The position numbers were made by a program, and so were the translations under genes. Below, piece after piece: positions 14,620-32,000 of a DNA stretch of 32,000 nt. The notes below the pieces were generated by a model. It ran no database searches and was not told where the DNA came from. It saw nothing but the letters and a program-made list of their open reading frames with translations. Every line of letters starts with the position of its first letter. Position 1 is the stretch's first letter. This stretch comes from Ruminococcus albus 7 = DSM 20455 (GTDB lineage: Bacteria; Bacillota; Clostridia; Oscillospirales; Ruminococcaceae), in assembly GCF_000179635.2 (NCBI RefSeq), contig NC_014824.1, positions 330,001 through 362,000 of the forward strand. Direction: 5' to 3'.

Positions 14620-14632
14620 TGAGGTGAATAGA

Positions 14633-15734: not shown

Positions 15735-17009
15735 GTGATCAAAGTAATTACATACGGAACATATGATATGCTCCATTATGGACATATTCGTCTACTTGAA
15801 AGAGCCAAAGCACTTGGTGATTATCTTATAGTTGGTGTAACATCTGATGACTATGATAAAACAAGAGGAAAAATTAATCTTCAGCAATCCTTGATGGAAC
15901 GTGTTGAAGCAGTCAAAGCGATAGGTATTGCTGATGAAATAATAGTTGAAGAATACGAAGGTCAAAAAATAGATGATATCCGCCGTTATCAGGTCGATAT
16001 TTTTACTGTTGGTTCTGATTGGGAAGGCAAGTTTGACTATCTTAATGAATACTGCAAGGTCGTATATCTTCCCCGTACTGAGGGCGTATCAAGCTCTGAA
16101 ATACGAGCTGAAAAGAGAAAGCTTAAAATTGGAACCATCGGCGGAAAAGGACTGTGTTCAAAATTCAAAAGAGAAATGCAGTTCGTGAACGGTGTTGAGT
16201 ATCAGGAATGTGGTAATGATTTTAAAAACGTTGATGCGGTATATATTGCAACACATCCCGAAAGACACTATGCCGATGTTAAGAGAGCGCTGGAACTTGG
16301 GAAGCACGTCATCTGCGAGTCACCTATTGCACTCAAAGTTGGTGAATGCAGAGAGCTTTTGAATCTGGCTCATGAAAAAGGTCTTATTTTGACTGATGCG
16401 ATTAAAACTGCATATTCTACTGCTTATTCAAGGTTGCTTGTTGTTGCAAAAAGCGGTAGGATAGGTGATATTATATCCGTGGATTCAGTATGTACAAGCT
16501 TGAGTGATAATGTATATGATGAAAATGTCGATTTGTCACGTAAACAAAATAGTATATGCGCATGGGGACCAACAGCTATGCTTCCAATTTTTCAGTTGCT
16601 TGGGACGGAGTATAGATCAAGTAATATTATTACTCAAATTATTGACAGTAATATAAACTTTGATGGATATACTAAAATTGATTTCGTTTATGATAAGGCT
16701 GTTGCATCTGCAAGAGTAGCAAAAGCAGCAAAGGCCGAAGGTGAACTCGTTATTACTGGTACCAAGGGATACATTTATGTTCCTGCACCTTGGTGGAAAA
16801 CTGATTATTTTGAGATTCGATTTGAAAATCCAGCTGATAATAAAAGGTATTTTTATCAGTTAGATGGAGAGGGAATTAGGTATGAAATAGTTGCGTTTGC
16901 AAAATCGGTAGAAAGTGGACGAGATAATTTCTATATCAATAATTCTATATCGTCAGAAATCTCTAAGACAATAGAAAAGTACAATTCTAATGATTACATT
17001 GAAATATGA
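15735..17009 (+). CDS. Bifunctional fusion: TagD-type glycerol-3-phosphate cytidylyltransferase (aa ~1-130) + Gfo/Idh/MocA-type oxidoreductase (aa ~130-424)
   Basis: The N-terminus VITYGTYDMLHYGHIRLLERAKALGDYLIVGVTSD ... FTVGSDWEGKFDYLNEYCKVVYLPRTEGVSSSEIR is almost colinear with B. subtilis TagD as I remember it. The rest has a Rossmann start (KIGTIGGKG), AVYIATHPERHYADVKRALELGKHVICESPIAL (the family's ..CEKP.. motif reading ESP here) and a dimerisation-type C-domain. GTG start follows GGAG. Confidence 0.85.
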   Translation: MIKVITYGTYDMLHYGHIRLLERAKALGDYLIVGVTSDDYDKTRGKINLQQSLMERVEAVKAIGIADEIIVEEYEGQKIDDIRRYQVDIFTVGSDWEGKFDYLNEYCKVVYLPRTEGVSSSEIRAEKRKLKIGTIGGKGLCSKFKREMQFVNGVEYQECGNDFKNVDAVYIATHPERHYADVKRALELGKHVICESPIALKVGECRELLNLAHEKGLILTDAIKTAYSTAYSRLLVVAKSGRIGDIISVDSVCTSLSDNVYDENVDLSRKQNSICAWGPTAMLPIFQLLGTEYRSSNIITQIIDSNINFDGYTKIDFVYDKAVASARVAKAAKAEGELVITGTKGYIYVPAPWWKTDYFEIRFENPADNKRYFYQLDGEGIRYEIVAFAKSVESGRDNFYINNSISSEISKTIEKYNSNDYIEI

Positions 17010-17021
17010 AAAGGAATAACA

Positions 17022-17870
17022 ATGAATAATGCAAAAGAATTAAGTCCGGAACAGTTTAGAAAAATGCAGCTGACAGAACTCGATATGCTTGTTGAGTTTG
17101 ACAGGGTGTGCCAGAAGAATAAGATCAGATATGTTTTGTTTGGCGGAAGTCTTCTTGGTGCGGTGCGTCATAAAGGATATATTCCATGGGACGATGATGC
17201 GGATATTGGAATGCTGCGTGAAGATTACAATAAATTTAAACGTCATATAAACGAATTGAATCCGGATATTTGTTATTTCCAGGATCATGATACAGACCCA
17301 GAGTATAGATGGGGATATGGGAAGTTGCGTAGAACAGGAACGAAATATGTTCGTGTTGGTCAGGAACATCTGAAATGTAAGACGGGTATATTTGTTGATG
17401 TATTTCCTATGGATGATATTCCTTTGTCAGTATTTGGACAGATACTACAGGATTTGCATTGCTTTTGTCTAAGAAAGATTTTATGGTCCGAAGTTGCTAA
17501 ATACAACACAAAAGGCTTTTGGAAGATATGGTTCACTCTTTTATCGAAGATTCCTGTTTCATTTGCATTTGATCAGTATAAGATTTATGAGAAAAAGAGC
17601 AGAAATCGCACTCCCAACAGAGTGAGATGTCTTTCTTTCCCGGCTACAGGAACCTTGTATAAGAAAAACCCTATCAACGAGCGTTATGGAATGCCAAAAT
17701 CATGGTTTACAGAAAGAAAGAAATATTTCTTTGAGGGAAAGTATTTTTTCAGTTCTCGTGACTTTGATACGGTGTTAAAGTATATTTACGGAGATTATAT
17801 GGAAATTCCAGATGAAAAAGGCAGAGAACAGCATTCGCCGTTTTCGGAAATAAAGTTTCCTGAAGAATAA
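17022..17870 (+). CDS. licD: LicD-family phosphotransferase, paralogue 2
   Basis: [30 protein letters not shown] plus a C-terminal YGDYMEIPD. Confidence 0.85.
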   Translation: MNNAKELSPEQFRKMQLTELDMLVEFDRVCQKNKIRYVLFGGSLLGAVRHKGYIPWDDDADIGMLREDYNKFKRHINELNPDICYFQDHDTDPEYRWGYGKLRRTGTKYVRVGQEHLKCKTGIFVDVFPMDDIPLSVFGQILQDLHCFCLRKILWSEVAKYNTKGFWKIWFTLLSKIPVSFAFDQYKIYEKKSRNRTPNRVRCLSFPATGTLYKKNPINERYGMPKSWFTERKKYFFEGKYFFSSRDFDTVLKYIYGDYMEIPDEKGREQHSPFSEIKFPEE

Positions 17871-17888
17871 ACAAGAAGGAGAAATAGA

Positions 17889-18686
17889 ATGATAGTAAAA
17901 TGCAAGCAGTCAGACATTGATCTGATCTTATCTTATATAGGCAATGATTATCCAAAATGCCTATATCTCTTTCTTAATGTAAATAAATATGGTTTGGAAC
18001 ACGGCAGAATTGAAGCGTTTATCCAATACTGCAAGGGTGATATCAGTTCTGTTATGTTGCAGTATTACTCTTGTTTACACATCTATTCAAAGGATAATTA
18101 TTTTGATAATGAAGAACTGACCGACTTCATTTTCTCTAAGAAAGAACTGACTATGCTTTATTGTGAAGCTTCAACCGCTGATAAGATTGCTTCAAACCTT
18201 TCCAAAAAGACAGACAAACAATTTTCTGTTACAAAGGGGTGGGTAGCTCAAATAAATGCTCTTAAAACAACTCCTAATGGTCTGGCAGAAAAGGCTGAGA
18301 GTAAAGATTTTGAACAGATTGTCAAAATGATCTATGATGATGAGGATATCGGGAGATCGTATAAATATGATGAACTGGCAAAACAGCTTGAAGAAAGAAA
18401 TAAAGAAGGGTATTCACGGAATTTAGTTATCAAGGATAATGAATTAGTAATAGCACACGCTTGTACAAATGCAGAATTTGAAAATGTGTCTGTTGTAGCA
18501 GAATTACTTGTCAGGAAAGAATATCGCAGGCAGGGTCATGCTTCAGAAATATGGGGAGATATCTGTAAAGAGTTGCTGGAAGAAGGGAAAGAGGTCTATT
18601 CATTTTATTATTCGTTTGAATCTCGTGCTTTACATAAGAAACTTGGTTTTGAAGAGGTTTGTGAGTGGTCTAAAATAGTATTCTAA
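17889..18686 (+). CDS. GNAT-family N-acetyltransferase (C-terminal GNAT fold; N-terminal ~150 aa unassigned)
   Basis: VAELLVRKEYRRQGHASEIWGDICKELLEEG ... LHKKLGFEEV matches the acetyl-CoA-binding motif A (R/Q-x-x-G-x-A/G) and the terminal beta-strands of GNATs. Confidence 0.65.
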   Translation: MIVKCKQSDIDLILSYIGNDYPKCLYLFLNVNKYGLEHGRIEAFIQYCKGDISSVMLQYYSCLHIYSKDNYFDNEELTDFIFSKKELTMLYCEASTADKIASNLSKKTDKQFSVTKGWVAQINALKTTPNGLAEKAESKDFEQIVKMIYDDEDIGRSYKYDELAKQLEERNKEGYSRNLVIKDNELVIAHACTNAEFENVSVVAELLVRKEYRRQGHASEIWGDICKELLEEGKEVYSFYYSFESRALHKKLGFEEVCEWSKIVF

Positions 18687-18704
18687 CGTTAATAGGTGGA
18701 TAAT

Positions 18705-19550
18705 ATGAATGAAGAAAACAAAAAAATATGGGCAGTTGAGCTTGATCTCCTTGAAAAACTAAAGGATATTTGTAATAAGTACGGTTTGAAATACTGTGCA
18801 AGTTCCGGAACTTTACTTGGTGCAGTACGTCATAAGGGTTTTATTCCCTGGGATGATGATATTGATGTTTTTCTTCCGTGGGCGGATTACAAAAAGTTAT
18901 TGGAAGTAGCACCAAAAGAATGTTCCTATCCGTTCTTCTTTCAGAGTTTTCTGAATGAAAAGGACGGTGAAACAAGTGCTAGTAGACTTAGAAGAAGTGA
19001 TACTACTGGTTTTACAAAATGGGAGTATGAAAATGTCGGTGCTGACTATGACAAAGGTATTTTTATTGACATTTTTCCGCTGTTCTATGTTCCTGAATCT
19101 AAGGCTGATCAGGCTGCTCAAAAGGAAACCATTATGTTTTTCTGGAAATGCATTAGAGGACATGACGCATTAGTCCAAATTAACAGAGGAAAAACACCAA
19201 ACCCAGACTATGAAAAGTACATAATGTATTATAAATGCGTAAGTGAATCAATGACAATCACGGATATCAAATGGGCCTATCTAAACGCTTGTGCAATTGA
19301 TGATAAACCTACATCGATAGTAGGTGCAACTTCTTCTCGTGTGCATTTAGATTCTCTTATGTGGGAAACAGCACTCTATGACGAGTATATTGATTTACCA
19401 TTTGAAAATACGACAATCAAAGTGCCAAAATACTACGAGGCTGTTTTGGATAAACAATATGGCGATTGGAGAACACCCATTGAAAATGGATCTCGGCATG
19501 AAATGATTGTTATAGATACTGAAACACCTTGGAGAAAGTATATGAAGTAG
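18705..19550 (+). CDS. licD: LicD-family phosphotransferase, paralogue 3
   Basis: [26 protein letters not shown] plus a C-terminal YGDWRTP. ATG 18705 follows AGGTGG. The track start GTG 18696 lies inside the RBS. Confidence 0.85.
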   Translation: MNEENKKIWAVELDLLEKLKDICNKYGLKYCASSGTLLGAVRHKGFIPWDDDIDVFLPWADYKKLLEVAPKECSYPFFFQSFLNEKDGETSASRLRRSDTTGFTKWEYENVGADYDKGIFIDIFPLFYVPESKADQAAQKETIMFFWKCIRGHDALVQINRGKTPNPDYEKYIMYYKCVSESMTITDIKWAYLNACAIDDKPTSIVGATSSRVHLDSLMWETALYDEYIDLPFENTTIKVPKYYEAVLDKQYGDWRTPIENGSRHEMIVIDTETPWRKYMK

Positions 19551-19600
19551 ATTTATTATAGTTTTTTTGTTCAGTGTATTAAGTAGGAGGTGGAATTTGG

Positions 19601-20578
19601 ATGATCAGTATAATTGTTCCTGTATATAATACTTCGCAGTTCCTTGATAGATGTTTGCAGTCTTTAGTGTCACAGACATATAAAGATATTGAGATTATCC
19701 TTATTGACGATTGTTCTACTGATAATTCAGCAGAAATAATGCGTCAATGGGAAACCAAAGACGATAGAATAAAAGCGATATATAAAAGTGAAAACACAGG
19801 AGTTAGCGATTCTAGGAATCGTGGACTAAGCATTGCAAATGGAGATTTTATTGGATTTGTCGATAGTGATGACTGGATTGATCCGAATATGTATTTCAAA
19901 ATGAATGAATCTTTAATTAAATTTGATGCTGATATTGCTATATGTTCAACAAGAAAAGTTTATTCTGATAGAAATGAAGATTTATTAGTGCCAAATAATG
20001 AATCATGTATATCAAGAGAAGAAGCTTTTTCTACTTGTTTAAAGTATCTTGGTCGTGGATCAAATAATATGTTTCTGTGGAACAAATTATTCAGAAAAAA
20101 TATTTTTGATACTATTCCTAATTTTCATACTGATATACGATATTGCGAAGATATTTTATGGGTAACAGAGGCATTTTGCAAAGCAAGAAAATTTGTTCTG
20201 TGCTCAGACATTGGATACTATTACAGATGCCTTAGAGAAGGCAGTTCAATCAATCTGCTAAATAATGGAATCACCGATCCGATAAATGCATATAACTTGA
20301 TTTGCAAAGAATTGATCAATCATAATATAAGTTGTTCAAATGCTGCATACCAAAGAATGATTGATTACAAAGATATCTTATTTAGAAATGCTGCAAAACA
20401 AGGAAATATAAAGATGTTTCGAATAGGGGCAAATAAATACAACAGGCATTTATTTCGTTGGCTTTGGAGAGAAAAGAATTATTATGCATTAAAATGGGTA
20501 GTTCGTAAGGAGATATCTATATTATATTATTCTATTATTTTGATAATTAATAAAGTTAAATATTTTTTCTGTTCGTGA
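19601..20578 (+). CDS. GT2-family glycosyltransferase
   Basis: ISIIVPVYNTSQFLDRCLQSLVSQTYKDIEIILIDDCSTDNS followed by GFVDSDD (DxD). AGGAGG RBS. Confidence 0.85.
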   Translation: MISIIVPVYNTSQFLDRCLQSLVSQTYKDIEIILIDDCSTDNSAEIMRQWETKDDRIKAIYKSENTGVSDSRNRGLSIANGDFIGFVDSDDWIDPNMYFKMNESLIKFDADIAICSTRKVYSDRNEDLLVPNNESCISREEAFSTCLKYLGRGSNNMFLWNKLFRKNIFDTIPNFHTDIRYCEDILWVTEAFCKARKFVLCSDIGYYYRCLREGSSINLLNNGITDPINAYNLICKELINHNISCSNAAYQRMIDYKDILFRNAAKQGNIKMFRIGANKYNRHLFRWLWREKNYYALKWVVRKEISILYYSIILIINKVKYFFCS

Positions 20579-20678
20579 ATATAGTGACTATAAATTCGTA
20601 GTAACAATCGGGTCAATGGTAATTAGGATATATATGGTAACAAAAAATAGTTAAAGAAAAAGACGGCAGGATGTTGAT

Positions 20679-21791
20679 ATGAAAAAGATTGCTATTCTAA
20701 CCATTACTGATGGACAAAATTATGGAAATCGCCTTCAGAACTATGCTCTTCAAAAAGTTTTGACTGGCTTAGGTTATGATGTTGAAACAATTCAGAGAAG
20801 AACGTGGCGTGACCTAAGAGGAATAAAGAAATATAAGCAGCTTATTAAAAATATGATAAAGAGTGTATTGGGTTATCCTAGTTGCAGGTTCCGCAAGCTA
20901 CGTGTCAGGTCGTTTGATAAGTTTAATAAAAGATATTTAAAGTTCTCAGACGTTGTTCTATGCGATAATCGTTATCCCAGCGGTCTGTCAAAAAGATACG
21001 ATTATTTTGTTGTAGGCAGCGATCAAGTATGGAATGCGGGATTCAGGATAATATATGAGGATATAAAGAATCATCTGGCTTATTTTGCAGAATCCCAACA
21101 GAGAATATCATATGCAGCAAGCTTTGGGACAAATTGTATTGCATCCGGATATGAAGATATCTTTAAAGAGGAACTGCCGAAATTTAAGGCCGTTTCGGTA
21201 AGAGAAATAAGCGGTGTGAAGATAGCTAGAGAATGCGGTGTTGAAGCAACCGTCGTAATCGACCCGACAATGTTGCTGACTAGCACACAATGGCTTGAGA
21301 TTGCTAAGAAGCCATCATACATAGAGGATGAACCTTTCGTAATGACTTATTTTCTTGGCGGCAGAGATGATGAACTAAAGGATTATATACGAAGGATATC
21401 TGAAGGTAAAAAAATTGTAGATCTTGAGATAGAATCTGTTACAGATGATAAAATAAGCTCTATAGATGTATATTGCTCTGCGCCTGATGAATTTGTGTGG
21501 TTGGCAGCAAACGCCGATTGTATTATTACAGATTCTTTCCACGCAACTGTGTTTTCAATCCTTTTTCACAGACCTTTCTGCGTATTTGAAAGAAAGGCTA
21601 TTAATAAAAGCTACAAAATGGGCAGTAGATTAGATACTTTGTTAGGGCTTTTTCATTTAGATAGATTTCATGACAGTAATAGAAGTTTTTCAGTAATCCC
21701 TGAAGAATATGTAACTGATGAAATAGAACAAATCCTAATGACTGAGAGAAAAAAATCTATGGAATTTTTAAGGAGTGCATTATCTGAATGA
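20679..21791 (+). CDS. Polysaccharide pyruvyl transferase family protein (ketal-pyruvate transferase)
   Basis: KIAILTITDGQNYGNRLQNYALQKVL, VVGSDQVWN and ITDSFHATVFSILFHRPF fit the PS_pyruv_trans (WcaK/CsaB/EpsO-like) pattern. Confidence 0.75.
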   Translation: MKKIAILTITDGQNYGNRLQNYALQKVLTGLGYDVETIQRRTWRDLRGIKKYKQLIKNMIKSVLGYPSCRFRKLRVRSFDKFNKRYLKFSDVVLCDNRYPSGLSKRYDYFVVGSDQVWNAGFRIIYEDIKNHLAYFAESQQRISYAASFGTNCIASGYEDIFKEELPKFKAVSVREISGVKIARECGVEATVVIDPTMLLTSTQWLEIAKKPSYIEDEPFVMTYFLGGRDDELKDYIRRISEGKKIVDLEIESVTDDKISSIDVYCSAPDEFVWLAANADCIITDSFHATVFSILFHRPFCVFERKAINKSYKMGSRLDTLLGLFHLDRFHDSNRSFSVIPEEYVTDEIEQILMTERKKSMEFLRSALSE

Positions 21792-23317
21792 AGATTGAGC
21801 GAACCAAAAATGCAGCAAGAAATATTGTTTGGGGAATTATAGAAAAAGTAGCTTCATTATTACTACCATTTGCAGTAAGAACAATAATGATTAAAGCTCT
21901 TGGTTCTGAATACTTAGGATTAAGTAGTTTGTTTACATCAATTCTATCTGTTCTCAGTATTTCAGAACTCGGAATAGGTACGGCTATTGTATTCAGTATG
22001 TACAAGCCAATCGCTGAAGATGATAATGATATGCTTTGTGCTTTGCTTAATGCATATAGAAGTGTGTATAGATTGATTGGAATAATAATTCTTTTTGCAG
22101 GAATAGCCATTACCCCATTTCTTCCTAAACTGGTAAAGGGCTCAGTTCCTTCAGATGTAAGTTTGTACGCTCTGTATTTTATCTATTTGTTTAATACTGT
22201 TATTAGCTACTTTTTGTTCTCATATAAGGCTGCATTGTTTTCTGCATTTCAGAGAAATGATTTAGTATCTAAGCGCAGTTTTGTAATAAATCTTGTTAGC
22301 AACATATATAAAATTGTTGTATTACTCTTGTTTCACAATTATTATATATATGTTATTGTTATTCCAGCAGCTACTATTGCAACAAATTTATTGAATGCAT
22401 ATTTAGCTAATAAAATGTTTCCTGATATACAGTGTAAAGGTGTGTTACCAAAGGAAACTAAGGATGGAATAAAGAAAAGAATAATTGGACTTATGTCATT
22501 TAAGATCTACAATGTTGTTTTTGCATCAGTAGACAGTATAGTTATTTCGTCTTTTCTTGGATTGACACCCCTTGCAATATATAATAATTACTATTATGTA
22601 CAGAATTCATTAGTTGGATTTTTAGTGATACTTACATCATCAATAACTGCTGGTGTAGGTAATAAAATGGTAACTAACAGCAAGGAAGATAATTATTCAG
22701 ATTTCAAAAAAATCACGTTTGTTAATGGCTGGATATGCAGCTTGTGTGCAGTTTGTATGTTTTGCTTATATCAGCCGTTCATGGTGTTATGGGTCGGAAA
22801 GGAACTGGTATTTCCATTCAGTACAATGACACTGATGGTTTTTTATTTTTTGCTTCCAAGAATCACAACGATCCAGTATACCTATAGGGAAGCTGCTGGT
22901 TTATGGTGGGAAGACCGTTTCAGACCATTGATTGCGACTGTCGTAAATCTGAGCACCAATCTGATACTCGTTCAGATTATAGGAATGAACGGAGTTATCA
23001 TTTCTACACTTATCTGTACTGTTTTTATTAATGTTCCGTGGGGAGCAATTGTGCTATTTAAGAAGTATTTTAATATGTCTCCCAGAGAATATTTTTATCA
23101 TATAGCTTTCTATCTTTTGATCACTTCTTTGGCGGGAGTTATTACTTATTCATTGTGTTGTATCATACCACTTAAGGGAATCGTTAACCTAGCGATTAGA
23201 AGTGTATTTTGCCTGATAATACCAAATGTGGTTTTCTGGATATTCTATCATAAAAGAGAAGAATACTCATTTGCTGTAGGATTGGTTTGCAGAATAAAAA
23301 AGCATGTACTTAAATAA
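21788..23317 (+). CDS. wzx: Wzx-type oligosaccharide flippase (MOP superfamily)
   Basis: 509 aa and polytopic. The N-terminus ARNIVWGIIEKVASLLLPFAVRTIMIKALGSEYLGLSSLFTSILSVL is typical of polysaccharide-biosynthesis (Wzx) flippases. ATGA overlap with the upstream gene. Confidence 0.8.
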   Translation: MKIERTKNAARNIVWGIIEKVASLLLPFAVRTIMIKALGSEYLGLSSLFTSILSVLSISELGIGTAIVFSMYKPIAEDDNDMLCALLNAYRSVYRLIGIIILFAGIAITPFLPKLVKGSVPSDVSLYALYFIYLFNTVISYFLFSYKAALFSAFQRNDLVSKRSFVINLVSNIYKIVVLLLFHNYYIYVIVIPAATIATNLLNAYLANKMFPDIQCKGVLPKETKDGIKKRIIGLMSFKIYNVVFASVDSIVISSFLGLTPLAIYNNYYYVQNSLVGFLVILTSSITAGVGNKMVTNSKEDNYSDFKKITFVNGWICSLCAVCMFCLYQPFMVLWVGKELVFPFSTMTLMVFYFLLPRITTIQYTYREAAGLWWEDRFRPLIATVVNLSTNLILVQIIGMNGVIISTLICTVFINVPWGAIVLFKKYFNMSPREYFYHIAFYLLITSLAGVITYSLCCIIPLKGIVNLAIRSVFCLIIPNVVFWIFYHKREEYSFAVGLVCRIKKHVLK

Positions 23318-23392
23318 TGAATGTAATATGCTTTAAATAGTCGGATTAATATGATAGCGTAGATAGCTGTAAGTTACGGAGGAAATAAATAT

Positions 23393-25132
23393 ATGGGAAA
23401 GTATTCTGTAGAAAAAAGTATTCAGATTCTTATTGCAATATTAAAGGCAAATAACATAAGAAAGGTTATTGTCAGTCCCGGCACAACAAATATCAGCTTG
23501 GTTGTAAGTATGGTGAACGACGGAAGCTTTGAAATGTATTCTGCTGTAGATGAGCGAGGTGCAGCATATATTGCCTGCGGTCTTGCATCGGAAAGCGGAG
23601 AACCCGTTGTTATTACTTGCACAGGTTCAACTGCATCCAGAAATTACTACCCAGGACTGACCGAAGCGTTTTATCGCAAATTACCTATCCTTGCAATTAC
23701 TGCTTCTCAGGATTTTGTTCGTAACGGAAATCTAAGTCCCCAATTCATTGATAGAACTCAGCAGCCCAAAGACAGCGTTTTGCTCAGTGTCCAGATTCCA
23801 ATTGTCAGAAATTCAGCTGATGAATATGATGCTACAATTAAGATCAACAGAGCTGTAACGGAGCTTTTTCACCATGGCGGCGGACCTGTACATATTAATC
23901 TAGCTTCGAGCTATACTAATGATTTTTCTGTTGAAGAATTACCAAGTGTTCATATAATTAATCGACATACATATAGTGACCAAAAACAATATCCCAAAAT
24001 TGAGCTGGGTAAAAAAGTTGGTATAATTATTGGAAATCATAAAACATTCAGTGTGCAGTTAACAGAAGCAATCGACAATTTCTGTGCAATATACGATGCA
24101 GTGGTGATCGTTGATCACAGCAGTCACTATTGGGGAAATTACAGAGTTCTTCCTACAATTCTTACTTGCCAGGGAGCTCATAACTCTAAATTGTTTGATT
24201 TTGAATTATTGATCCATATTGGTGAGGCACACGGTGATTATTATACTGAACCATATATGAAGCGTGCGAAAGAAGTATGGCGCATAAGCGAAGATGGCGA
24301 GATAAGGGATACATTTGGGGTATTAACCAATTTGTTTGAAATGACGGAATTACACTTCTTTGATACATATAACAAAAACTTTCAAGAAGTGAATCCTAAG
24401 CATGATCAAAGAGATCTGTTTTATAAAGAAATAAATGATATATATGATCAAATTCCAGAGCTGCCTTTTTCAAATATATGGATTGCTCAGCAAATTATTC
24501 CCCAATTTCCTTCGGATGCTTGTTTGGAATTAGGAGTTAGCAATACCATGAGATCATGGACATTTTTTGATTTCAAATCGGAAGTCTATGTTTTGGCTAA
24601 CACAGGATGTCGTGGAATCGATGGAGCTATTCCTACATTGGTCGGAATGTCACTTGCAGATCCTGAAAAAATACATTTTGCGGTCATGGGTGATTTGACG
24701 TTCTTTTATAGCTTTAATGTTCTTGGAAACCGACATATTGGTAAGAATTTAAGAATTTTGTTGGTCAATAATGGATGTGGCGAAGAATTCAATATATACT
24801 CAAATAGGGCATATAAAATATATGATGGCGATCACGAAAAAATTAATGAGTTTATCGCAGCCGGAAATCAAACCGGAACCAGATCAAAACAATTAGTGAA
24901 ACATTTTGCAGAAGATATTGGAATGAAATATATGACTGCATCAAATAAAGAAGAATTCACGCAATTATTGCCGGAATTTTTAAATACTGAGTCTGAAAGC
25001 GACTCCATTATTTTTGAAGTCTTTACAGATGTTGATGAAGAAAATACCGCATTAAAACTCATAAGAAATATAAGAATTGATACATCATCAGCTATAAAAG
25101 GGAAAATCAAAAGTTTATTGGGAAGAAAATAA
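23393..25132 (+). CDS. Thiamine-diphosphate enzyme of the MenD (SEPHCHC synthase) type, in a non-menaquinone context
   Basis: Three-domain-size ThDP enzyme (579 aa). The N-terminal Pyr domain VIVSPGTTNISLV...AVDERGAAYIACGLA...PVVITCTGSTASRNYYPGLTEAFYRKLPILAITAS parallels MenD (..SPGSRS.PL....DER...F.ALG......PV.L.CTSGTA.ANL.PA..EA....PL..LTAD) rather than acetolactate synthase (HEQ). The PP-domain motif MGDLTFFYSFNVLG......LRILLVNNGCGEEF parallels MenD GDLS..YD.N.L.......L.I...NN.GG.IF. Confidence 0.7.
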   Translation: MGKYSVEKSIQILIAILKANNIRKVIVSPGTTNISLVVSMVNDGSFEMYSAVDERGAAYIACGLASESGEPVVITCTGSTASRNYYPGLTEAFYRKLPILAITASQDFVRNGNLSPQFIDRTQQPKDSVLLSVQIPIVRNSADEYDATIKINRAVTELFHHGGGPVHINLASSYTNDFSVEELPSVHIINRHTYSDQKQYPKIELGKKVGIIIGNHKTFSVQLTEAIDNFCAIYDAVVIVDHSSHYWGNYRVLPTILTCQGAHNSKLFDFELLIHIGEAHGDYYTEPYMKRAKEVWRISEDGEIRDTFGVLTNLFEMTELHFFDTYNKNFQEVNPKHDQRDLFYKEINDIYDQIPELPFSNIWIAQQIIPQFPSDACLELGVSNTMRSWTFFDFKSEVYVLANTGCRGIDGAIPTLVGMSLADPEKIHFAVMGDLTFFYSFNVLGNRHIGKNLRILLVNNGCGEEFNIYSNRAYKIYDGDHEKINEFIAAGNQTGTRSKQLVKHFAEDIGMKYMTASNKEEFTQLLPEFLNTESESDSIIFEVFTDVDEENTALKLIRNIRIDTSSAIKGKIKSLLGRK

Positions 25133-25153
25133 GATTATTTAAAGGGAATTCGA

Positions 25154-26209
25154 ATGAAAGTATTATTACTAGGCGGAACCGGAGCAATGGGAACACATGT
25201 CATTGACTTCCTTAAGAAAAAAGATAAAATTGAAATAGTTGTTTCTTCACGTTCTGCAAGAAAAGCTAATGATAAAGTTACATATGTCCAAGGTAATGCT
25301 AAAGACATTACATTCCTAAAAGAATTGTGCAAACAGCATTGGGATGCTATTCTAGATTTTATGGTTTACACAACATCAGAATTGCAAAGTCGAATTGACT
25401 TACTATTATCTTCTACAGTTCAGTATTTATTTTTCAGTTCAGCAAGAGTATATGCTGATTCATCAGACCTAATAACAGAGGACAGCCCCAGATTATTAGA
25501 TGTTTGTACAGATCAAACATATTTATCTACAGATGAATATGCACTTGCAAAAGCACGAGAAGAAAATATTCTCTTTTCTCATAAGAATAAAAACTGGACA
25601 ATTATCAGACCAAGCTTAACTTATGGCGAGAATCGCTTACAGTTGGGTGTTTATGAAAAAGAAAATTGGCTGTATCGAGCGTTACATGGTAGATCTATTG
25701 TTTTTTCAAAAGATTTGATGGAAAGGTACTATACTCTTTCTTATGGAAAAGATGTAGCTGAAGGAATTGCAGCACTTGTAGGCAATAAAGACGCGGTAGG
25801 AGAGGTCTTTCATATTGTTCAGGATCAGTCATTTCAGTGGAAAAACATATTAGAGTTATATGTAGCTGAGATTGAAAAAGTTACCGGAAAGAAACCTAAT
25901 GTTGTATTAACTGAGAAGTCAACAAATTTAAAACTGGAATATAAAAAGTATCAAGTTATATATGGCAGATATTTCAACAGGCATTTTGATAATTCTAAAA
26001 TCAAAAAGTTTGTTGATACCTCAAATTGGTTGCAACCTGATGATGGCTTGGTACAATGCCTTGATACGTTTTTAAAAGAGCCTGTATATCAGAATATTGA
26101 TTGGAATGTAGAAGTATTGCTTGATAAGGCAGCACATGAATTTACTCCAATAAAAGATATAAAAGGCAAAAGAGCAAAACTAAGCTATCTAAAGCATAGA
26201 TTTATATGA
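25154..26209 (+). CDS. NAD(P)-dependent SDR (extended epimerase/dehydratase/reductase family)
   Basis: VLLLGGTGAMGTHV glycine-rich motif, FFSSARVY and a YALAK catalytic Y-x3-K. It starts 21 nt after the MenD-like gene. Confidence 0.75.
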   Translation: MKVLLLGGTGAMGTHVIDFLKKKDKIEIVVSSRSARKANDKVTYVQGNAKDITFLKELCKQHWDAILDFMVYTTSELQSRIDLLLSSTVQYLFFSSARVYADSSDLITEDSPRLLDVCTDQTYLSTDEYALAKAREENILFSHKNKNWTIIRPSLTYGENRLQLGVYEKENWLYRALHGRSIVFSKDLMERYYTLSYGKDVAEGIAALVGNKDAVGEVFHIVQDQSFQWKNILELYVAEIEKVTGKKPNVVLTEKSTNLKLEYKKYQVIYGRYFNRHFDNSKIKKFVDTSNWLQPDDGLVQCLDTFLKEPVYQNIDWNVEVLLDKAAHEFTPIKDIKGKRAKLSYLKHRFI

Positions 26210-26258
26210 TTGTTTACACTTTGTATTTATATAAACGATTGACACAGGAGGATAACCC

Positions 26259-27263
26259 GTGTATGCTGCAACAGAGCAGAACAGAACAGAACAGAACAGA
26301 ACAGAACAGAGTAATACTATTCAATTATTCAGAGGACTTTCAATAATAGCTGTTGTATTTATACACAACACGCCTTCCGGAATAACACAGGTTTTTGTAA
26401 GACCATTTCTTAACTTTTCTGTAGGTTTATTCTTGTTTCTTAGCGGATTTCTAACTGATCCCAATAAAATTTCAATAAAGAAAAGACTTAAAAAAGTCTT
26501 AATACCCTATGTTATATGGACTGCTGTTTATGTGATTTTATATAATTATCAATCACCAGGCTCCATTCCCTTGCTATTCTTTAAAAACTTGATTACGGCA
26601 AATTCAGCTGCGATGATGTATTATATTGCAGTATACTGTCAGTTAACTTTGTTAGTTCCAATAATCAACAAGTTTGCAAATTCAAAATATAAATACTGGT
26701 TCCTTTTGATTTCTCCAATTGAAATAATAGTAATGCGAACACTCCCTATACTGTTTAGATTTCAATTTCCTAATATTATAACATCAATTATGCATATCTC
26801 GTTTGTGGGATGGTTTGAATATTACTATCTTGGATATCTTATTGGTAATAAGAAATTAGAGTTGTCAAGTATAAAAATACGAAAGATGTATTTTCTACTA
26901 GCTTTTTCGATACTATTTCAGTATGGAGAAGGTTTCCTTTTTTACTCATTGGAAAGTGATAAATGTGGAACTCAATTGAAGCTCAGCAGCTTGGCTACAG
27001 GAATTGTTATTTGCTTGATTAGCTGTTGCTTTATTACTAATGGAAAGAAATATAACTGTACCGCTATAAAGAATCTTGGCGATAAATCATTTGGTATTTA
27101 TTTATCACATATGGCTATTATGCGTTTGTTAGGATTGATCCCCTTTTATTCGGAATATGTTGTATTTCCAATAAATGCTGGTATTATCATCATGTTTTCA
27201 TATTTATTTGCTATTATTAGTAGTAGCATTCTTGCAAAGAATAATTATATTTGGAATGTGTAA
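26259..27263 (+). CDS. Acyltransferase-3 family membrane O-acyltransferase (polysaccharide O-acetyltransferase)
   Basis: LFRGLSIIAVVFIHN is followed by about ten hydrophobic segments and a late FGIYLSH motif, typical of acyltransferase_3 (OatA/WecH-like) proteins. GTG 26259 lies 7 nt after GGAGG. The 5' end contains the (CAGAA)n tract. Confidence 0.8.
   Translation: MYAATEQNRTEQNRTEQSNTIQLFRGLSIIAVVFIHNTPSGITQVFVRPFLNFSVGLFLFLSGFLTDPNKISIKKRLKKVLIPYVIWTAVYVILYNYQSPGSIPLLFFKNLITANSAAMMYYIAVYCQLTLLVPIINKFANSKYKYWFLLISPIEIIVMRTLPILFRFQFPNIITSIMHISFVGWFEYYYLGYLIGNKKLELSSIKIRKMYFLLAFSILFQYGEGFLFYSLESDKCGTQLKLSSLATGIVICLISCCFITNGKKYNCTAIKNLGDKSFGIYLSHMAIMRLLGLIPFYSEYVVFPINAGIIIMFSYLFAIISSSILAKNNYIWNV
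26271..26310 (+). repeat. Pentanucleotide microsatellite: (CAGAA)x6+CAGA perfect (26277-26310), 8 units with one mismatch from 26271
   Basis: Read directly: ACAGA GCAGA ACAGA ACAGA ACAGA ACAGA ACAGA ACAGA. It lies within codons 5-18 of the acyltransferase ORF. Confidence 0.95.
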
Positions 27264-27504
27264 GAATATATATTGCCAAAAAGTTGGTTTATATAAATAT
27301 AAGAAATACTGAGGTTAGAAAAAACTGTTATTATCCATGGGTCGTCATTTGATTATGTCATCTCTTTCTTTGGCAATCTTATGTTGAATAACCCGTAAAT
27401 AATAAGACTATTTAAGACGCTAACGTAGTAAATTGATATGACCGTTGCCTTGTTAATGTTGAGGATAAGTTTTATACCAGAAATTTGTTAAGGAGAGATT
27501 AACA

Positions 27505-28173
27505 ATGTACAAAACATCTGATCTATATGATCTTGAACATACCTTAGCTAAGGACTACCTGAGCCAGTTCACCTACCCCTGGGAAGTTCTCAGCGGCATA
27601 AAGGATTTTATCATTGAACTCGGCAAGACCCTCGACCCCAACGAATATGAACAGCGTGAGGAAGGCGTGTGGGTACACAAGACTGCAAAGGTTTTCCCGA
27701 CTGCGTATCTCGGTGCACCTTGCATAATCGGACCGAATACCGAAGTGCGTCACTGTGCGTTCATTCGTGGTTCTGCACTGGTGGGTGCTGACTGCGTTGT
27801 AGGCAACAGCGTTGAACTAAAAAACGTTATACTTTTTGACCACGTTCAGACTCCGCACTACAATTATGTTGGAGACAGCATTCTCGGTTATTTCAGCCAC
27901 ATGGGCGCTGGCTCTATCACATCGAACGTGAAGTCCGATAAAAAGAATGTCATTGTCCGAGATGGCAGCGAGAAGGTTGAGACCGGTATCAAGAAGTTTG
28001 GTGCGATGATAGGCGACTATGTCGAGGTTGGCTGTAATGCCGTCTGCAATCCGGGTACTGTCATCGGTAGGAACAGCAATGTTTATCCGACTTCTTGCGT
28101 ACGTGGTGTTGTGCCTGCTGATTCGATTTGGAAGGATAATGGAGAGATCATACATAAGGAAGATAGATGCTAA
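27505..28173 (+). CDS. Left-handed beta-helix (hexapeptide) transferase resembling the GlmU C-terminal acetyltransferase domain
   Basis: Successive hexapeptide turns (GAPCIIGPNTEVRHCAFIRGSALVGADCVVGNSVELKNVILFD). HYNYVGDSILGYFSHMGAGSITSNVKSDKKNVIV parallels GlmU HL.Y.GD..IG..VN.GAGTIT.NYDG..K..T.IG. AAGGAGAG RBS. GC is visibly higher than in the operon to its left. Confidence 0.6.
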   Translation: MYKTSDLYDLEHTLAKDYLSQFTYPWEVLSGIKDFIIELGKTLDPNEYEQREEGVWVHKTAKVFPTAYLGAPCIIGPNTEVRHCAFIRGSALVGADCVVGNSVELKNVILFDHVQTPHYNYVGDSILGYFSHMGAGSITSNVKSDKKNVIVRDGSEKVETGIKKFGAMIGDYVEVGCNAVCNPGTVIGRNSNVYPTSCVRGVVPADSIWKDNGEIIHKEDRC

Positions 28174-28182
28174 GAGGTGTCT

Positions 28183-29292
28183 ATGAACAAATATGACTAC
28201 AAACAGAATGCATACTATATGCTTTATCTTATAAGATGTGTTTTGCATGATAAAATTCCCGAAAAACAGAAACTAGATAAGATAAATTTGTCTCAGCTTT
28301 ACGAAGTTGCGCAAACTCATTCTTTAACTGCAATTACAGCGTATGCAATTGACTCTTCAAATATAATTGATGAACGATTTAAGGAAGCAAAAAGCAAGGC
28401 AATACGAAAATCAATATACTTTGAAATAGAGCGAGCAGCGGTTCTAGCTGAACTTGAGAAAAATGAGATATGGTATATGCCGCTGAAGGGGATCATCTTG
28501 AAAGACTACTACCCTAAAAGTAGTATGCGTGAAATGTGCGACAATGATATCTTGTTTGACAATTCACGAATTGAAGATGTCAAACAGATAATGAGTTCCC
28601 AGCGCTTTGAGATGAAGTACGATGATAACGGTCATGATTTGGCGTTTTATAAAGAGCCTGTCTGCAATTTTGAAATGCATACCGAGTTATTTGGCGATGG
28701 TCACGATCAGAGAATGAATGATTATTATTCTGCTGTAAGATCACGCTTGATAAAAGATTCGGATAACTCTTTTGGATATCATTTTTCAAATGAGGATTTT
28801 TATGTATTCATGATTGCACATGAGTATAAGCATTTTTATAATGCTGGAACGGGCTTGCGCTCACTACTTGATACCTATGTTTTTATAAAGGAATTCAATA
28901 CATCATTAGATTGGAAATATATTAACGTTGAATTGAGCAAGCTCGGAATAAATGATTACGAACAAAAGAATCGAAATCTTGCCTTCAAATTATTTCATGG
29001 TGTTAAACTTAATAGTGAAGAAAAGGAATTTCTTGATTATTTCATTTTTTCTGAAACATATGGCAATAGCCAGAATAGAGTGAGAATACAGCTCAAAGCA
29101 AAATCTAATAATAGATTTAGATACATATTTGATAGAATAGCAATTCCAATGGATTCCATAAAAAGGTCATTTCCAACGTTTTACAAATATCCCATATTAT
29201 TGCCAGTATTGCCTGTATACAGAGTATATCGTAGTTATAAGTCACATAAATCAGGTGTAATATCTGAACTAAGAGTTCTATTTAGGCTATAA
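28183..29292 (+). CDS. Uncharacterised nucleotidyltransferase-family protein (NTP_transf_5 / PF14907-like)
   Basis: WYMPLKGIILKDYYPKSSMREMCDNDILFD fits the lKG..l...Yp....R...DiDiL motif of this family. ATG 28183 follows AAGAGG. The track's GTG 28177 overlaps the RBS. Confidence 0.55.
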   Translation: MNKYDYKQNAYYMLYLIRCVLHDKIPEKQKLDKINLSQLYEVAQTHSLTAITAYAIDSSNIIDERFKEAKSKAIRKSIYFEIERAAVLAELEKNEIWYMPLKGIILKDYYPKSSMREMCDNDILFDNSRIEDVKQIMSSQRFEMKYDDNGHDLAFYKEPVCNFEMHTELFGDGHDQRMNDYYSAVRSRLIKDSDNSFGYHFSNEDFYVFMIAHEYKHFYNAGTGLRSLLDTYVFIKEFNTSLDWKYINVELSKLGINDYEQKNRNLAFKLFHGVKLNSEEKEFLDYFIFSETYGNSQNRVRIQLKAKSNNRFRYIFDRIAIPMDSIKRSFPTFYKYPILLPVLPVYRVYRSYKSHKSGVISELRVLFRL

Positions 29293-29343
29293 TCCTAAAT
29301 CTCTTTTTCAGGGCTTTTACAATGAGAGCAGGAGGTAAATCAC

Positions 29344-32000
29344 ATGGCAATGCACCTATATCCCCACAATCTAATAGCATACACATCCGCAGTTCATATG
29401 CTTTCCGAGCGTGGCAAAGCCGCTGTGATTCACCCCACAGGAACAGGCAAATCTTTCATAGGTTTCAAGCTCTGCGAGGACAACCCCAATAAAACTATTT
29501 GCTGGCTCTCTCCGTCAAGATACATCTATCAAACACAGCTTGAAAACCTTGCTGAGACTTCCGATGGCTATCAGCCAGAGAATGTTAAGTTCTATACCTA
29601 TGCAAAGCTGATGAATGTCAGTGAGGAAGAAATCGCTGAGATACAGCCCGACTACATAATACTTGACGAATTTCATAGGTGTGGCGCAGAGCTTTGGGGC
29701 GCAGGTGTTGATGCTGTTCTAAGAGCATATCCCGATGTTCCTGTGCTTGGTCTGTCTGCAACTGCTATCCGCTATCTCGATAATCAGCGTGATATGACCG
29801 ATGAACTGTTTGACGGAAATGTTGCAAGTGAAATGACGCTTGGTGAAGCTATCGTGCGTGGTATCCTCAATCCTCCGAAGTACATTCTGTCCGTGTTTTC
29901 TATCCAAAAGGACTTGGATAAATACGAACAGCGAGTTCATAATGCCCGATACAAGAAAATGCGTGATGAAGCTGAGGTATACCTTGAAGCACTTCGCCGT
30001 GCTTTGGATCATGCCGAAAAGCTTGATGTGATGTTCGATAAGCACATGGAGGACAGAACGGGTAAGTATATCGTTTTTTGTGCCAACCGTGAACACATGG
30101 ACGATATGATCGGCAAGGCGAAGGAATGGTTTGCAAAGGTCGATAAAAGACCTCACATCTACAAAGTATATGCAAGCAATCCTGAAACAAGCAAGGCATT
30201 TGCAGATTTTAAGTCAGACAGATCAGAACGTCTTAAACTGCTGTACTGCATTGATATGCTCAACGAGGGCGTTCATGTGGAGGATATTTCTGGCGTTATT
30301 CTGCTGCGCCCTACGGTCTCACCTATCATATATAAACAGCAGATCGGGCGGGCGCTTTCGGCAAGCAAGTCGAATATGCCCGTCATATTCGATATAGTCA
30401 ATAACATTGAAAACCTGTACAGCATTGATACCGTCAAGGATGAAATGCAGACTGCGATACAGTATTTCTACAAACATGATGGTTCGGGAGTGGTTGTCAA
30501 CGAAAACTTCGAGCTTATTGACAAGGTTGCCGATTGCAAGAGCCTGTTTGAAGCGTTGGAGGGTACACTTTCTGCTTCATGGGACATAATGTACGAAAAG
30601 GCTAAGGAGTATTATGAGCAGTACGGTGATCTTGAAATACCGAAGGATTATTACACCGAGGACGGTTACAGTCTCGGTATTTGGATAATTACCCAAAGGG
30701 GAAACTATCGCGGCACAACATTAAATTCCGTTCCGCTGACACAGGTTCAGATAGACAAGCTGACAGCTATCGGAATGCGCTGGCAGAGCATCAACGAGCT
30801 GTCATGGGAACGGTATTTTGAAGCTGCGGAGCAGTATTACAATACTCACGGCGATCTTCTTCCTACGGCCGCTTTTGTTGATGAAAACGGTATAGATCTA
30901 GGACGCTGGCTGCAAAATCAGCGGACAGCCCGAAAGAACGGCGTGACAAAATGGGGACTGACCGAGGAACGGATAGCGCGTCTTGACGGTATCGGAATGG
31001 TCTGGGACGTTTTTGATTATCAGTGGGAGGAGAATTTTTCAGCTGCTGTGCGTTATCACAGGCAGCACGGCGATCTTGAGGTGCCGCAGAAATATGTTGA
31101 CAGCGAAGGCTTTTATCTTGGCAGATGGCTTTCAAAACTGCGTTTGAACCGCAAAAACGGTACAGAAACTTTGACCGAAGAACAGAAAGCAAGGCTCGAT
31201 GCTCTCGGAATGTGCTGGGAGGACAGGTTCGAAAGGCGTTGGAACAATAATTTTCGTGAGCTTTGCAAATACTATGATGAACATAAAACGCTGACAGTTC
31301 CGGCGCAGTTCAGAACCGAAAGCGGTGCGAATCTATACGCTTGGATAAAAACTCAGCGTGTTAAATTCAGTGAGGGCAGGCTTTCTGATGAACAGTTTAA
31401 AAAGCTGAATAGCATAGGCTTCGATTTTACGATCACCGACATTTGGGAAGAAAATTTTGCTTTTGCAAAAAAGTATTTCGAGGAACACGGCGATCTTAAT
31501 ATTCCTGCCACGGATAACAAAGGCATCACAGTAAGAAAATGGCTTCTTCGGCAGAAAAAATATGCAGATGCTCCGGATTCAGCAAGGCTGTCGCATGAGC
31601 AGATCGAAAAGCTGCGTTCAATAGGTCTTTTTGATGAGCTTTCCCATACCGACAGGCTTTGGTTTTCACGTTACGGAATGGCTAAGGCTTTTTATGCGGA
31701 GAACGGTCATTTGAATGTCCCAAAGGATTGTATTATTGACGGTTTCAATCTCGGAACGTGGGTGCAAACTCAAAAGCAAAAGAACAAAAAAGGTGTGCTT
31801 TCACAGGACAAAATTGACCTGCTAAACAAACTGGGAATGAATTGGGAAAGCCTTGCCGAAATAGATAATTCTCGTCTGTACAAAACAGGTTTTGCTCATC
31901 TTGAAAAATATATCGCAGAAAATGGTTTGGGCAACGTAAGAGCGAATACTGTCTGCGAGGACGGCTATGCCCTCGGAAACTGGTTGACGAATTGCAGAAG
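29344..32000 (+). CDS. Superfamily-2 DExH helicase (ResIII-type core) fused to a tandem array of helicase-associated (HA) domains; 3'-partial, continues beyond the window
   Basis: This ORF is not in the supplied track because no stop codon occurs before position 32000. I translated the frame by hand from ATG 29344 (AGGAGG RBS at 29330-29335) and found no stops over 885 codons. The motifs are HPTGTGKS (Walker A), ILDEFHRCG (DExH), LGLSATA (III) and YKQQIGRALS (VI). From 30580 there are repeated W...F.....Y....G.L.VP......G..LG.W...QR......L....I..L..IGM.W units. Confidence 0.85.
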   Translation, partial: MAMHLYPHNLIAYTSAVHMLSERGKAAVIHPTGTGKSFIGFKLCEDNPNKTICWLSPSRYIYQTQLENLAETSDGYQPENVKFYTYAKLMNVSEEEIAEIQPDYIILDEFHRCGAELWGAGVDAVLRAYPDVPVLGLSATAIRYLDNQRDMTDELFDGNVASEMTLGEAIVRGILNPPKYILSVFSIQKDLDKYEQRVHNARYKKMRDEAEVYLEALRRALDHAEKLDVMFDKHMEDRTGKYIVFCANREHMDDMIGKAKEWFAKVDKRPHIYKVYASNPETSKAFADFKSDRSERLKLLYCIDMLNEGVHVEDISGVILLRPTVSPIIYKQQIGRALSASKSNMPVIFDIVNNIENLYSIDTVKDEMQTAIQYFYKHDGSGVVVNENFELIDKVADCKSLFEALEGTLSASWDIMYEKAKEYYEQYGDLEIPKDYYTEDGYSLGIWIITQRGNYRGTTLNSVPLTQVQIDKLTAIGMRWQSINELSWERYFEAAEQYYNTHGDLLPTAAFVDENGIDLGRWLQNQRTARKNGVTKWGLTEERIARLDGIGMVWDVFDYQWEENFSAAVRYHRQHGDLEVPQKYVDSEGFYLGRWLSKLRLNRKNGTETLTEEQKARLDALGMCWEDRFERRWNNNFRELCKYYDEHKTLTVPAQFRTESGANLYAWIKTQRVKFSEGRLSDEQFKKLNSIGFDFTITDIWEENFAFAKKYFEEHGDLNIPATDNKGITVRKWLLRQKKYADAPDSARLSHEQIEKLRSIGLFDELSHTDRLWFSRYGMAKAFYAENGHLNVPKDCIIDGFNLGTWVQTQKQKNKKGVLSQDKIDLLNKLGMNWESLAEIDNSRLYKTGFAHLEKYIAENGLGNVRANTVCEDGYALGNWLTNCR
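30580..32000 (+). repeat. Protein-level tandem repeat array: at least 7 HA-domain units of ~68-75 aa
   Basis: The unit-initial Trp codons are at 30580, 30805, 31024, 31240, 31444 and 31660. A seventh unit (Tyr in place of Trp) starts near 31879. Spacing is 204-225 nt. The units are diverged at the DNA level, so this is not a recent duplication. Confidence 0.8.

Follow-up and report, generated by a model that had tools for sequence, protein, structure and literature searches.

A MenD-derived thiamine diphosphate enzyme linked to a pyruvyl transferase family protein and a reductase in a glycan-tailoring module of Ruminococcus albus 7 and other bacteria

Background

MenD (EC 2.2.1.9), the synthase of SEPHCHC (2-succinyl-5-enolpyruvyl-6-hydroxy-3-cyclohexene-1-carboxylate), is a thiamine diphosphate (ThDP) enzyme of menaquinone biosynthesis. 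It decarboxylates 2-oxoglutarate, and the ThDP-bound carbanion adds in 1,4 fashion to an alpha,beta-unsaturated carboxylate, isochorismate. In a glycan pathway, that of yersiniose A, ThDP-dependent carbon-carbon bond formation is likewise followed by a reductase; YerE, an enzyme of the acetolactate synthase (ALS) lineage, acts on a CDP-4-keto sugar by 1,2-addition, and YerF is the reductase. Polysaccharide pyruvyl transferase family (PF04230) proteins use phosphoenolpyruvate (PEP), and the intermediate expected from them is an enolpyruvyl ether, R-O-C(=CH2)-COO-. The current work deals with a stretch of 32,000 nucleotides of Ruminococcus albus 7 = DSM 20455 (contig NC_014824.1, positions 330,001 to 362,000), here called the window. 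In this window the genes of a MenD-like ThDP enzyme, an extended short-chain dehydrogenase/reductase (SDR) and a PF04230 protein lie in one glycan locus.

A comparable pair of enzymes is known from a natural product pathway of Paraburkholderia megapolitana. Megapolipeptin A contains Hoha (2-hydroxy-4-oxoheptanedioic acid), bound through its C2 oxygen to a lipid carbinol, with a heteronuclear multiple bond correlation between Adhda-19 and Hoha-2 (PMC11411415). Two products of its gene cluster are the pyruvyl transferase MgpK and MgpL, a ThDP lyase that carries the annotation SEPHCHC synthase (PMC11411415, PMC13291983), and these two have been proposed as the makers of the Hoha group (PMC11411415). 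The seven carbons of Hoha fit a sum of three from PEP and four from 2-oxoglutarate after loss of CO2. A transferase with 72.5% similarity, from a cluster without a ThDP gene, forms an ordinary ketal of pyruvate in vitro with PEP as its substrate (PMC12964715).

Related substituents occur in polysaccharides. PMC10609480, citing Shashkov et al. 2008, describes stereoisomeric 2,4-dihydroxypentanoic acids (Dhpa) that are joined through a C2 ether to sugars of Providencia alcalifaciens O-antigens, for example as beta-D-Manp4OR in P. alcalifaciens O31. The five carbons of Dhpa fit three from PEP and two from pyruvate after loss of CO2, with the 4-oxo group reduced, which would be expected of a module that includes a reductase. 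In the literature, no glycan work was found that links MenD-like or thiamine enzymes with a pyruvyl transferase, capsule or flippase; the two enzyme families were linked solely in the megapolipeptin and chitinimine papers.

MenD ancestry of the ThDP enzyme

The ThDP enzyme of the window is a protein of 579 amino acids encoded at 23393..25132 on the + strand, with an ATG start and a GGAGG ribosome-binding site about 9-13 nt upstream of it. It matches Pfam TPP_enzyme_N (5.9e-17) and TPP_enzyme_C (3.5e-6). A preliminary description of this DNA had judged the protein to be MenD-like rather than ALS-like from short motifs, all of which were found again (SPG at residue 28, DER at 53, GDL at 433 and NNG at 459), and the profile and structure searches agree with that judgment. 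The NCBIfam menD model TIGR00173 is by far the best, at 163.1 bits, which lies under its curated cut-off of 244.2 bits; acetolactate synthase models of NCBIfam reach about 40 bits or less, and in the N-terminal domain only. All of the best PDB sequence matches are MenD (7tin, 3.3e-28), while ALS structures align to residues 8-105 only. The 50 best Foldseek matches of its AlphaFold (AF2) model (predicted local distance difference test score, pLDDT, of 90) are also all MenD, at 16-20% identity; the model is a monomer, and the active site at the dimer interface lies outside it.

MenD is thus the nearest relative by both sequence and structure. The two share the three-domain PYR-TH3-PP fold of ThDP enzymes, the catalytic Glu and the GDL...NN metal and diphosphate motif, and Gln117, Ile409 and Arg387 of the window enzyme match Q118, I418 and R395 of E. 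coli MenD. Across the family, the catalytic E54, the G433-D434-L435 and N459-N460 ThDP motif and the Ile of the V conformation are invariant. Kinship with the enzymes of menaquinone synthesis is distant: identity is 22% to E. coli MenD, 24% to Staphylococcus aureus MenD and 30% to Bacteroides finegoldii MenD, each reference gene having been taken from a men operon. The reference menD genes belong to operons of the order menF-D-(H)-B-C-E, and the related glycan loci are without men genes. Pfam and NCBIfam annotation of the window proteins revealed no menaquinone genes among the open reading frames (ORFs) of the window either, as had been stated before. In a tblastn search of plasmids, all matches were true menD genes lying on wrongly assigned pieces of chromosome, which served as MenD references, and a DNA-level search of E. 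coli genomes gave no match.

The residues that bind the substrates of MenD have been located in the Listeria monocytogenes enzyme. Ser34, Arg35, Arg108, Gln119 and Arg301 line the isochorismate tunnel; Ser408, Arg412 and Arg431 bind the carboxylate derived from 2-oxoglutarate, and Asn434 lies 3.6 A off (PMC12312563). In E. coli numbering, the tunnel positions are S32, R33, R107, Q118 and R293, and the donor positions are S391, R395 and R413. The corresponding tunnel residues of the window enzyme align as T31, T32, Q106, Q117 and Y283, so that Gln alone is retained and all three arginines are replaced. Among 199 full-length family members, T occupies the R33 position in 131, Q the R107 position in 116 and Y the R293 position in 142, the last column falling in the middle domain, which is aligned less securely than the rest. 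The alignment shows that residues for binding isochorismate have been lost from the window enzyme. The preliminary description had named retention of these residues as one mark of a misplaced menD gene; instead, T31, T32, Q106 and Y283 stand in place of the Ser and Arg residues of the tunnel.

On the donor side, S383 and R387 are retained, the R413 position is occupied by T404, and an arginine (R407) has been gained at the position of Asn434 in the L. monocytogenes enzyme. Two main versions of this pocket occur among the 199 members: S/R/(T,I,V)/R, the type of the window enzyme, and a hydrophobic L/R/V/F version, which forms the majority. Because S383 and R387 are retained and R407 is added, an acidic donor, 2-oxoglutarate over pyruvate, is slightly favoured for the window enzyme. 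For the majority, with its hydrophobic pocket, the donor may be pyruvate.

Given these observations, the probability that the gene is a displaced housekeeping menD, making SEPHCHC for menaquinone, is practically negligible. Its best database matches are indeed MenD, and automatic pipelines sometimes label members of the family as such. Against this stand an identity of 22-30%, a score of 163 bits against a cut-off of 244, the loss of the equivalents of Arg33, Arg107, Arg293 and Arg413, and the lack of men genes in the window and in related loci. Context, score and residues support the view that the enzyme is a glycan-associated paralogue of MenD lineage, recruited to glycan biosynthesis together with an adjacent reductase; in this, the preliminary description appears to have been right.

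Important information on the origin of the family may be found in a rough neighbour-joining tree. The MenD sequences of E. coli and S. aureus fall outside the remaining sequences, and B. finegoldii MenD clusters with sequences that retain the S-R-R-N donor signature of MenD. A subclade neighbouring the B. finegoldii group is also found in the glycan module: its gene order is PF04230-Wzx-ThDP-SDR in locus L103, and in L101 and L017 the ThDP gene is followed by an aldo-keto reductase gene, with Wzx. These S-R-R-N glycan proteins (L101:86-1810, L103:5377-7161 and L017:2189-3946) have 35-40% identity to Bacteroides MenD, compared with 32-34% to the window protein, and may represent either an intermediate stage or another recruitment from MenD. 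In the main glycan clade the pocket is hydrophobic, and the S/R/T/R pocket of the window enzyme appears to be derived, because it is nested at the tip of this clade. As judged from the tree, the family grades into MenD and is not sharply separate from it.

A conserved module in related loci

Both the ThDP enzyme and the SDR have thousands of homologues, and neither gene is therefore a chance ORF. The surroundings of the ThDP gene were compared in 98 loci, 80 metagenomic ones having been added, of which 47 were non-redundant and informative, with at least 2.5 kb on each side. The ORFs of this survey were scored by profiles built from annotated examples, and divergent PF04230 members were verified against Pfam. 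A PF04230 protein was encoded near the ThDP gene in 43 of the 47 loci, and a Wzx flippase within 3.5 kb in 44. In 37, the ThDP gene had a reductase gene as its immediate neighbour on the same strand (19 classical and 18 extended SDRs), and most of the loci beyond these 37 had an aldo-keto reductase, or a reductase at a distance of one gene. Glycosyltransferases of the GT2 family were encoded within 7 kb on either side in 31 loci. The neighbourhood of wzx, glycosyltransferase and SDR genes to which the preliminary description had pointed is thus recurrent; the conserved partner, the pyruvyl transferase gene, had been overlooked there. In the window, this gene (PS_pyruv_trans, 1.1e-36) occupies 20679..21791 on the + strand, two genes upstream of the ThDP gene, and its stop overlaps the start of wzx by 4 nt. 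No sequence relative of its product with a solved structure was found.

The module was observed in Selenomonas sp. AE3005, a Parabacteroides metagenome-assembled genome, Anaerophaga thermohalophila and several metagenomic contigs, and also in Agromyces allii, where the ThDP enzyme has just 34% identity. Ruminococcus champanellensis is a further cultivable carrier of it. Its range thus covers at least three phyla, Bacillota, Bacteroidota and Actinomycetota. An exhaustive search of representative sequences gave 797 clusters at E <= 1e-30, a count that includes true MenDs because the family grades into MenD; a scan of a genome collection with a single protein query gave 2 loci.

In some members the same activities are joined in one polypeptide. 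Such joining is seen in several lineages. Four proteins (P0128, P0172, P0180 and P0201) are independent fusions of the ThDP enzyme with PF04230 by Pfam; three (P0121, P0124 and P0200) join an aldo-keto reductase with 4Fe-4S (Fer4) domain to the ThDP enzyme, and P0162 joins an SDR to it. P0132 combines GT2, SDR, ThDP enzyme and PF04230 in 1653 amino acids, in a single unbroken ORF with 8 cluster members. Gene fusion and synteny across phyla imply that the three enzyme activities are very likely functionally coupled. The PF04230 enzyme, the MenD-derived ThDP enzyme and a carbonyl reductase form a conserved glycan-tailoring module, usually with Wzx and often with a GT2 glycosyltransferase.

Two further features of related loci may be mentioned. 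The gene of the 1653-aa GT2-SDR-ThDP-PF04230 fusion (L105:6589-11550) lies beside genes for a Wzm/Wzt-type ABC transporter, two polymerising GT8-GT2 glycosyltransferases and RgpF, which suggests that in this ABC-transporter-dependent pathway the same chemistry caps the chain end. In several loci (L023:4686-6041 and L041:5509-6888; also L031, L065, L066, L074 and L084), a protein of about 455 amino acids is encoded between wzx and the reductase and ThDP genes. It has a PP-loop-like FFSGGVDA.HAG motif and a C-terminal CxxCxKCxR cysteine cluster, and no Pfam match; loci L040-L045 have this protein, and a reductase was not found in them. A carboxylate of the substituent may be the target of this protein, as an ATP-dependent enzyme.

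The composition of the module also bears on the acceptor that had been proposed for the ThDP enzyme. According to the preliminary description, the enzyme might, in the manner of YerE, furnish a keto-sugar nucleotide, for example the 4-keto intermediate of the CapE/FnlA enzyme, with an acyl or hydroxyalkyl branch derived from a 2-oxo acid, and the SDR might reduce the branch as YerF does. The ThDP gene does adjoin an SDR gene, an FnlA-like 4,6-dehydratase is encoded in the window (7964..9004), and the extended SDR fold is similar to that of sugar-nucleotide enzymes. The 4,6-dehydratase, however, is not a conserved neighbour over the 47 loci, and the loci of Anaerophaga (L011) and Agromyces (L016) showed none in the vicinity of the module; the partner that is conserved, and also fused, is PF04230, a PEP-dependent transferase. 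The reductase may belong to the classical SDRs or to the aldo-keto reductases, neither with a nucleotide-sugar domain, the enzyme lineage is that of MenD and not of ALS and YerE, and the FnlA-like enzyme already completes the usual L-FucNAc trio with an RmlD-like reductase and a 2-epimerase. A keto-sugar acceptor is thus quite improbable. The fallback of the same description, that the pair builds a non-sugar substituent, lies nearer to the evidence.

The reductase

The SDR gene of the window (25154..26209, + strand, ATG start) begins 21 nt after the ThDP ORF, and its product of 351 amino acids matches Epimerase PF01370 (1.1e-13). The nucleotide-binding GxxGxxG lies at residues 7-13 (G7, G10 and G13), and S95/S96, Y129 and K133 are invariant, so that the intact YxxxK noted earlier is confirmed. 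The AF2 model (pLDDT 92.6) indicates an extended SDR with the predicted two-domain fold; a fold search returned generic extended SDRs only, at 12-19% identity, with no clue to specificity.

More can be learned from other loci, some of which have a classical SDR or an aldo-keto reductase in place of this protein. Swapping among unrelated reductase families points to a plain reduction of a ketone or carbonyl group by the reductase of the module. Aldo-keto reductases and SDRs are also typical aldehyde reductases. This would suit a scheme in which the ThDP enzyme is a mere decarboxylase: a 2-oxo acid would become an aldehyde and then an alcohol (2-oxoglutarate giving succinic semialdehyde and 4-hydroxybutyrate), which would be incorporated or pyruvylated by the PF04230 enzyme. 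A set of PEP-using enzyme, ThDP decarboxylase and reductase formally parallels early phosphonate biosynthesis. However, no kinase, ligase or nucleotidyltransferase that could attach the alcohol is conserved in the module, the ethers of Hoha and Dhpa would be left unexplained, and enzymes of MenD lineage retain the post-decarboxylation intermediate for carboligation and release no aldehyde (PMC12312563). The probability of this scheme is accordingly very small.

Proposed reaction of the module

CsaB, WcaK and DxpH/ChtnH are ketal-forming pyruvyl transferases of the same Pfam family as the module's PF04230 member, and DxpH uses PEP (PMC12964715). These enzymes work by themselves and turn a diol into a cyclic ketal, whereas the module's PF04230 protein is linked to a ThDP enzyme and a reductase; this linkage implies a different fate for the three-carbon unit that is derived from PEP.

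We infer the substrates, the order of the steps and the product as follows. The substrate would be a lipid-linked repeat unit at the cytoplasmic face of the membrane. In the first step, the PF04230 enzyme would use PEP to convert one sugar hydroxyl into its enolpyruvyl ether. In the second, the ThDP enzyme would decarboxylate a 2-oxo acid, and C3 of the enolpyruvyl ether would receive the ThDP-bound acyl-anion equivalent in a Stetter-type 1,4-addition, which is the reaction type of MenD. The result would be R-O-CH(COO-)-CH2-CO-R', a 2-O-glycosyl 4-oxo acid. In the third step, the SDR, as an NAD(P)H-dependent ketoreductase, would turn the 4-oxo group into a hydroxyl, and an ether-linked 2,4-dihydroxy acid would be the end product. 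With 2-oxoglutarate as the donor this would be the C7 acid 2,4-dihydroxyheptanedioate, and with pyruvate the C5 acid 2,4-dihydroxypentanoate. We give this reading of the module, from enolpyruvyl ether through Stetter-type addition and reduction to an ether-linked 2,4-dihydroxy acid on a sugar, a probability of about 50%.

Comparison with MgpK and MgpL, by description, is instructive. That system likewise pairs a PF04230-type transferase with a ThDP enzyme annotated as MenD; its acceptor is a lipid hydroxyl in a product of polyketide synthase and nonribosomal peptide synthetase, as against a glycan for the module. The megapolipeptin pair has no reductase and the 4-oxo group stays, whereas the window module has one.

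The order of the first two steps may also be reversed. The ThDP enzyme would then take free PEP as the acceptor of the decarboxylated 2-oxo acid and form a 2-phospho-4-oxo acid ('1,5-dicarboxy-3-oxopentyl phosphate'), perhaps reduced afterwards, with which the PF04230 enzyme would alkylate the sugar hydroxyl under loss of phosphate. Such an order was suggested by the authors of the megapolipeptin study (PMC11411415). It is equally compatible with the gene linkage and the fusions, and all substrates up to the final step would be soluble small molecules. Characterised PF04230 enzymes, however, take the enol phosphate of PEP (PMC12964715), and by analogy with MurA and 5-enolpyruvylshikimate-3-phosphate (EPSP) synthase the C2=C3 double bond would be needed; displacement of phosphate at a saturated secondary carbon beside a carboxylate would be a different reaction. 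The reversed order is therefore regarded as rather unlikely. Other schemes were dropped: ThDP-dependent decarboxylation of a pyruvate ketal, which offers no carbonyl for attack by the ylide, and both a Claisen-type rearrangement and an elimination to an unsaturated uronate, the supporting genes of which are not conserved.

Several points weigh against the addition to an enolpyruvyl ether as set out above. Such an ether is an electron-rich alkene and a weaker Michael acceptor than isochorismate, and PF04230 enzymes ordinarily proceed to the cyclic ketal. The identity of the donor 2-oxo acid is uncertain, with the R413 equivalent lost and a hydrophobic L/V/F pocket predicted for most members, and the activities given here for the ThDP family are predicted from its genes. 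The monomer model hides the active site at the dimer interface, which bears on the placing of new invariant residues such as R83. As to the precedents, the role of MgpK and MgpL is itself a proposal, and the authors also weigh lipid peroxidation as the origin of Hoha (PMC11411415); MgpL and the Providencia O-antigens were compared by description.

A wider proposal can be made, and it is put forward more tentatively than the reaction itself. A mobile cassette of a MenD-derived 'Stetterase', a PEP-dependent enolpyruvyl transferase and a ketoreductase may install a hitherto unassigned class of acidic substituents, 2,4-dihydroxyheptanedioate and 2,4-dihydroxypentanoate ethers, on capsular and cell-wall polysaccharides, and may be the missing biosynthesis of Dhpa in Providencia and of Hoha in megapolipeptin. 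The expectation of new chemistry in the preliminary description holds in part. Such a module probably forms an acidic side group on a sugar, a function so far undescribed in polysaccharides. On the other hand, a pair of pyruvyl transferase and MenD-like enzyme has already been proposed, unproven, for megapolipeptin (PMC11411415), and ether-linked 2,4-dihydroxypentanoic acids are already known in Providencia O-antigens (PMC10609480).

Other genes of the locus and its flanks

The co-directional glycan locus spans about 4402..29292 on the + strand of the window. The ThDP and SDR genes lie within it, between wzx and an O-acyltransferase gene, in agreement with the arrangement reported before. The Wzx-type flippase (Polysacc_synt, 4.7e-9) is encoded upstream of the ThDP gene at 21788..23317 on the + strand. 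Further upstream, a GT2 glycosyltransferase (19601..20578, + strand; Glycos_transf_2, 3.5e-39) is a loose member of the module and probably adds the sugar that is later decorated. Downstream of the SDR gene, the Acyl_transf_3 O-acyltransferase (26259..27263, + strand; PF01757, 1.9e-25) is an accessory gene outside the conserved module; it adjoins the module in few related loci only, such as L005, L012 (a fragment) and L097. Promoter and terminator scans of the window remained at chance level, and no RNA genes were found in it.

At 7964..11046, an FnlA-like 4,6-dehydratase/5-epimerase gene (7964..9004; TIGR04130, 496 bits, under the 730-bit cut-off) is accompanied by genes for an RmlD-like reductase and a WecB-type 2-epimerase, the latter above its cut-off. 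This trio is the usual pathway of UDP-L-FucNAc type, and it alone explains the 4-keto intermediate that the preliminary description had invoked.

A second tailoring block at 13780..19550 contains three LicD-family transferase genes (at 13780, 17022 and 18696), a class-V aminotransferase gene (14570..15706) nearest to PhnW/AepZ at 147 bits, under the cut-off, and a GNAT gene (17889..18686). In the protein encoded at 15735..17009, a glycerol-3-phosphate-cytidylyltransferase-like domain is fused to a Gfo/Idh/MocA oxidoreductase. The block looks like a route to a CDP-activated polyol phosphate that is oxidised, then aminated and N-acylated, a substituent of the aminoglycerol-phosphate or serinol-phosphate type; a phosphonate route was ruled out, since PEP mutase is absent. 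At the end of the locus (27505..29292), a left-handed beta-helix protein of 222 amino acids is similar only to the acetyltransferase half of archaeal-type GlmU, and the second gene, an 'uncharacterised nucleotidyltransferase' (NTP_transf_5, 1.1e-38), starts 3 nt past the stop of the first.

The flanks resemble DNA of the mobile or defence type. The left flank (1..4400) contains genes for a DUF4314 protein (28..690) and a 413-aa RES-domain protein (2513..3754), a DUF772 transposase fragment on the minus strand (1582..2268) and a small ORF that is SpoVS-like by eye (1048..1320). In the right flank (29326..31998), a helicase-like ORF of more than 890 amino acids with the motif DEFH continues past the end of the window. 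The GC content goes up there, from about 0.35 to 0.44-0.46.

Conclusions

Capsule and exopolysaccharide loci with this cassette number in the hundreds to thousands among gut, rumen and environmental bacteria, and its ThDP enzyme is labelled there simply 'thiamine pyrophosphate-binding protein' or, mistakenly, MenD. Assignment of its function would end false MenD and menaquinone calls in metabolic reconstructions of anaerobes. The chemistry, once assigned, would be a new enzymatic modification of glycans, a ThDP-dependent carbon-carbon extension of a PEP-derived ether. If the proposed reaction is true, the origin of the ether-linked dihydroxy acids reported from O-antigens in 2008 would be explained, and glycan tailoring would be tied to a natural-product pathway, that of megapolipeptin. 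Each repeat unit would then gain one or two carboxylates, with likely effects on capsule charge and on recognition by phages and the immune system.

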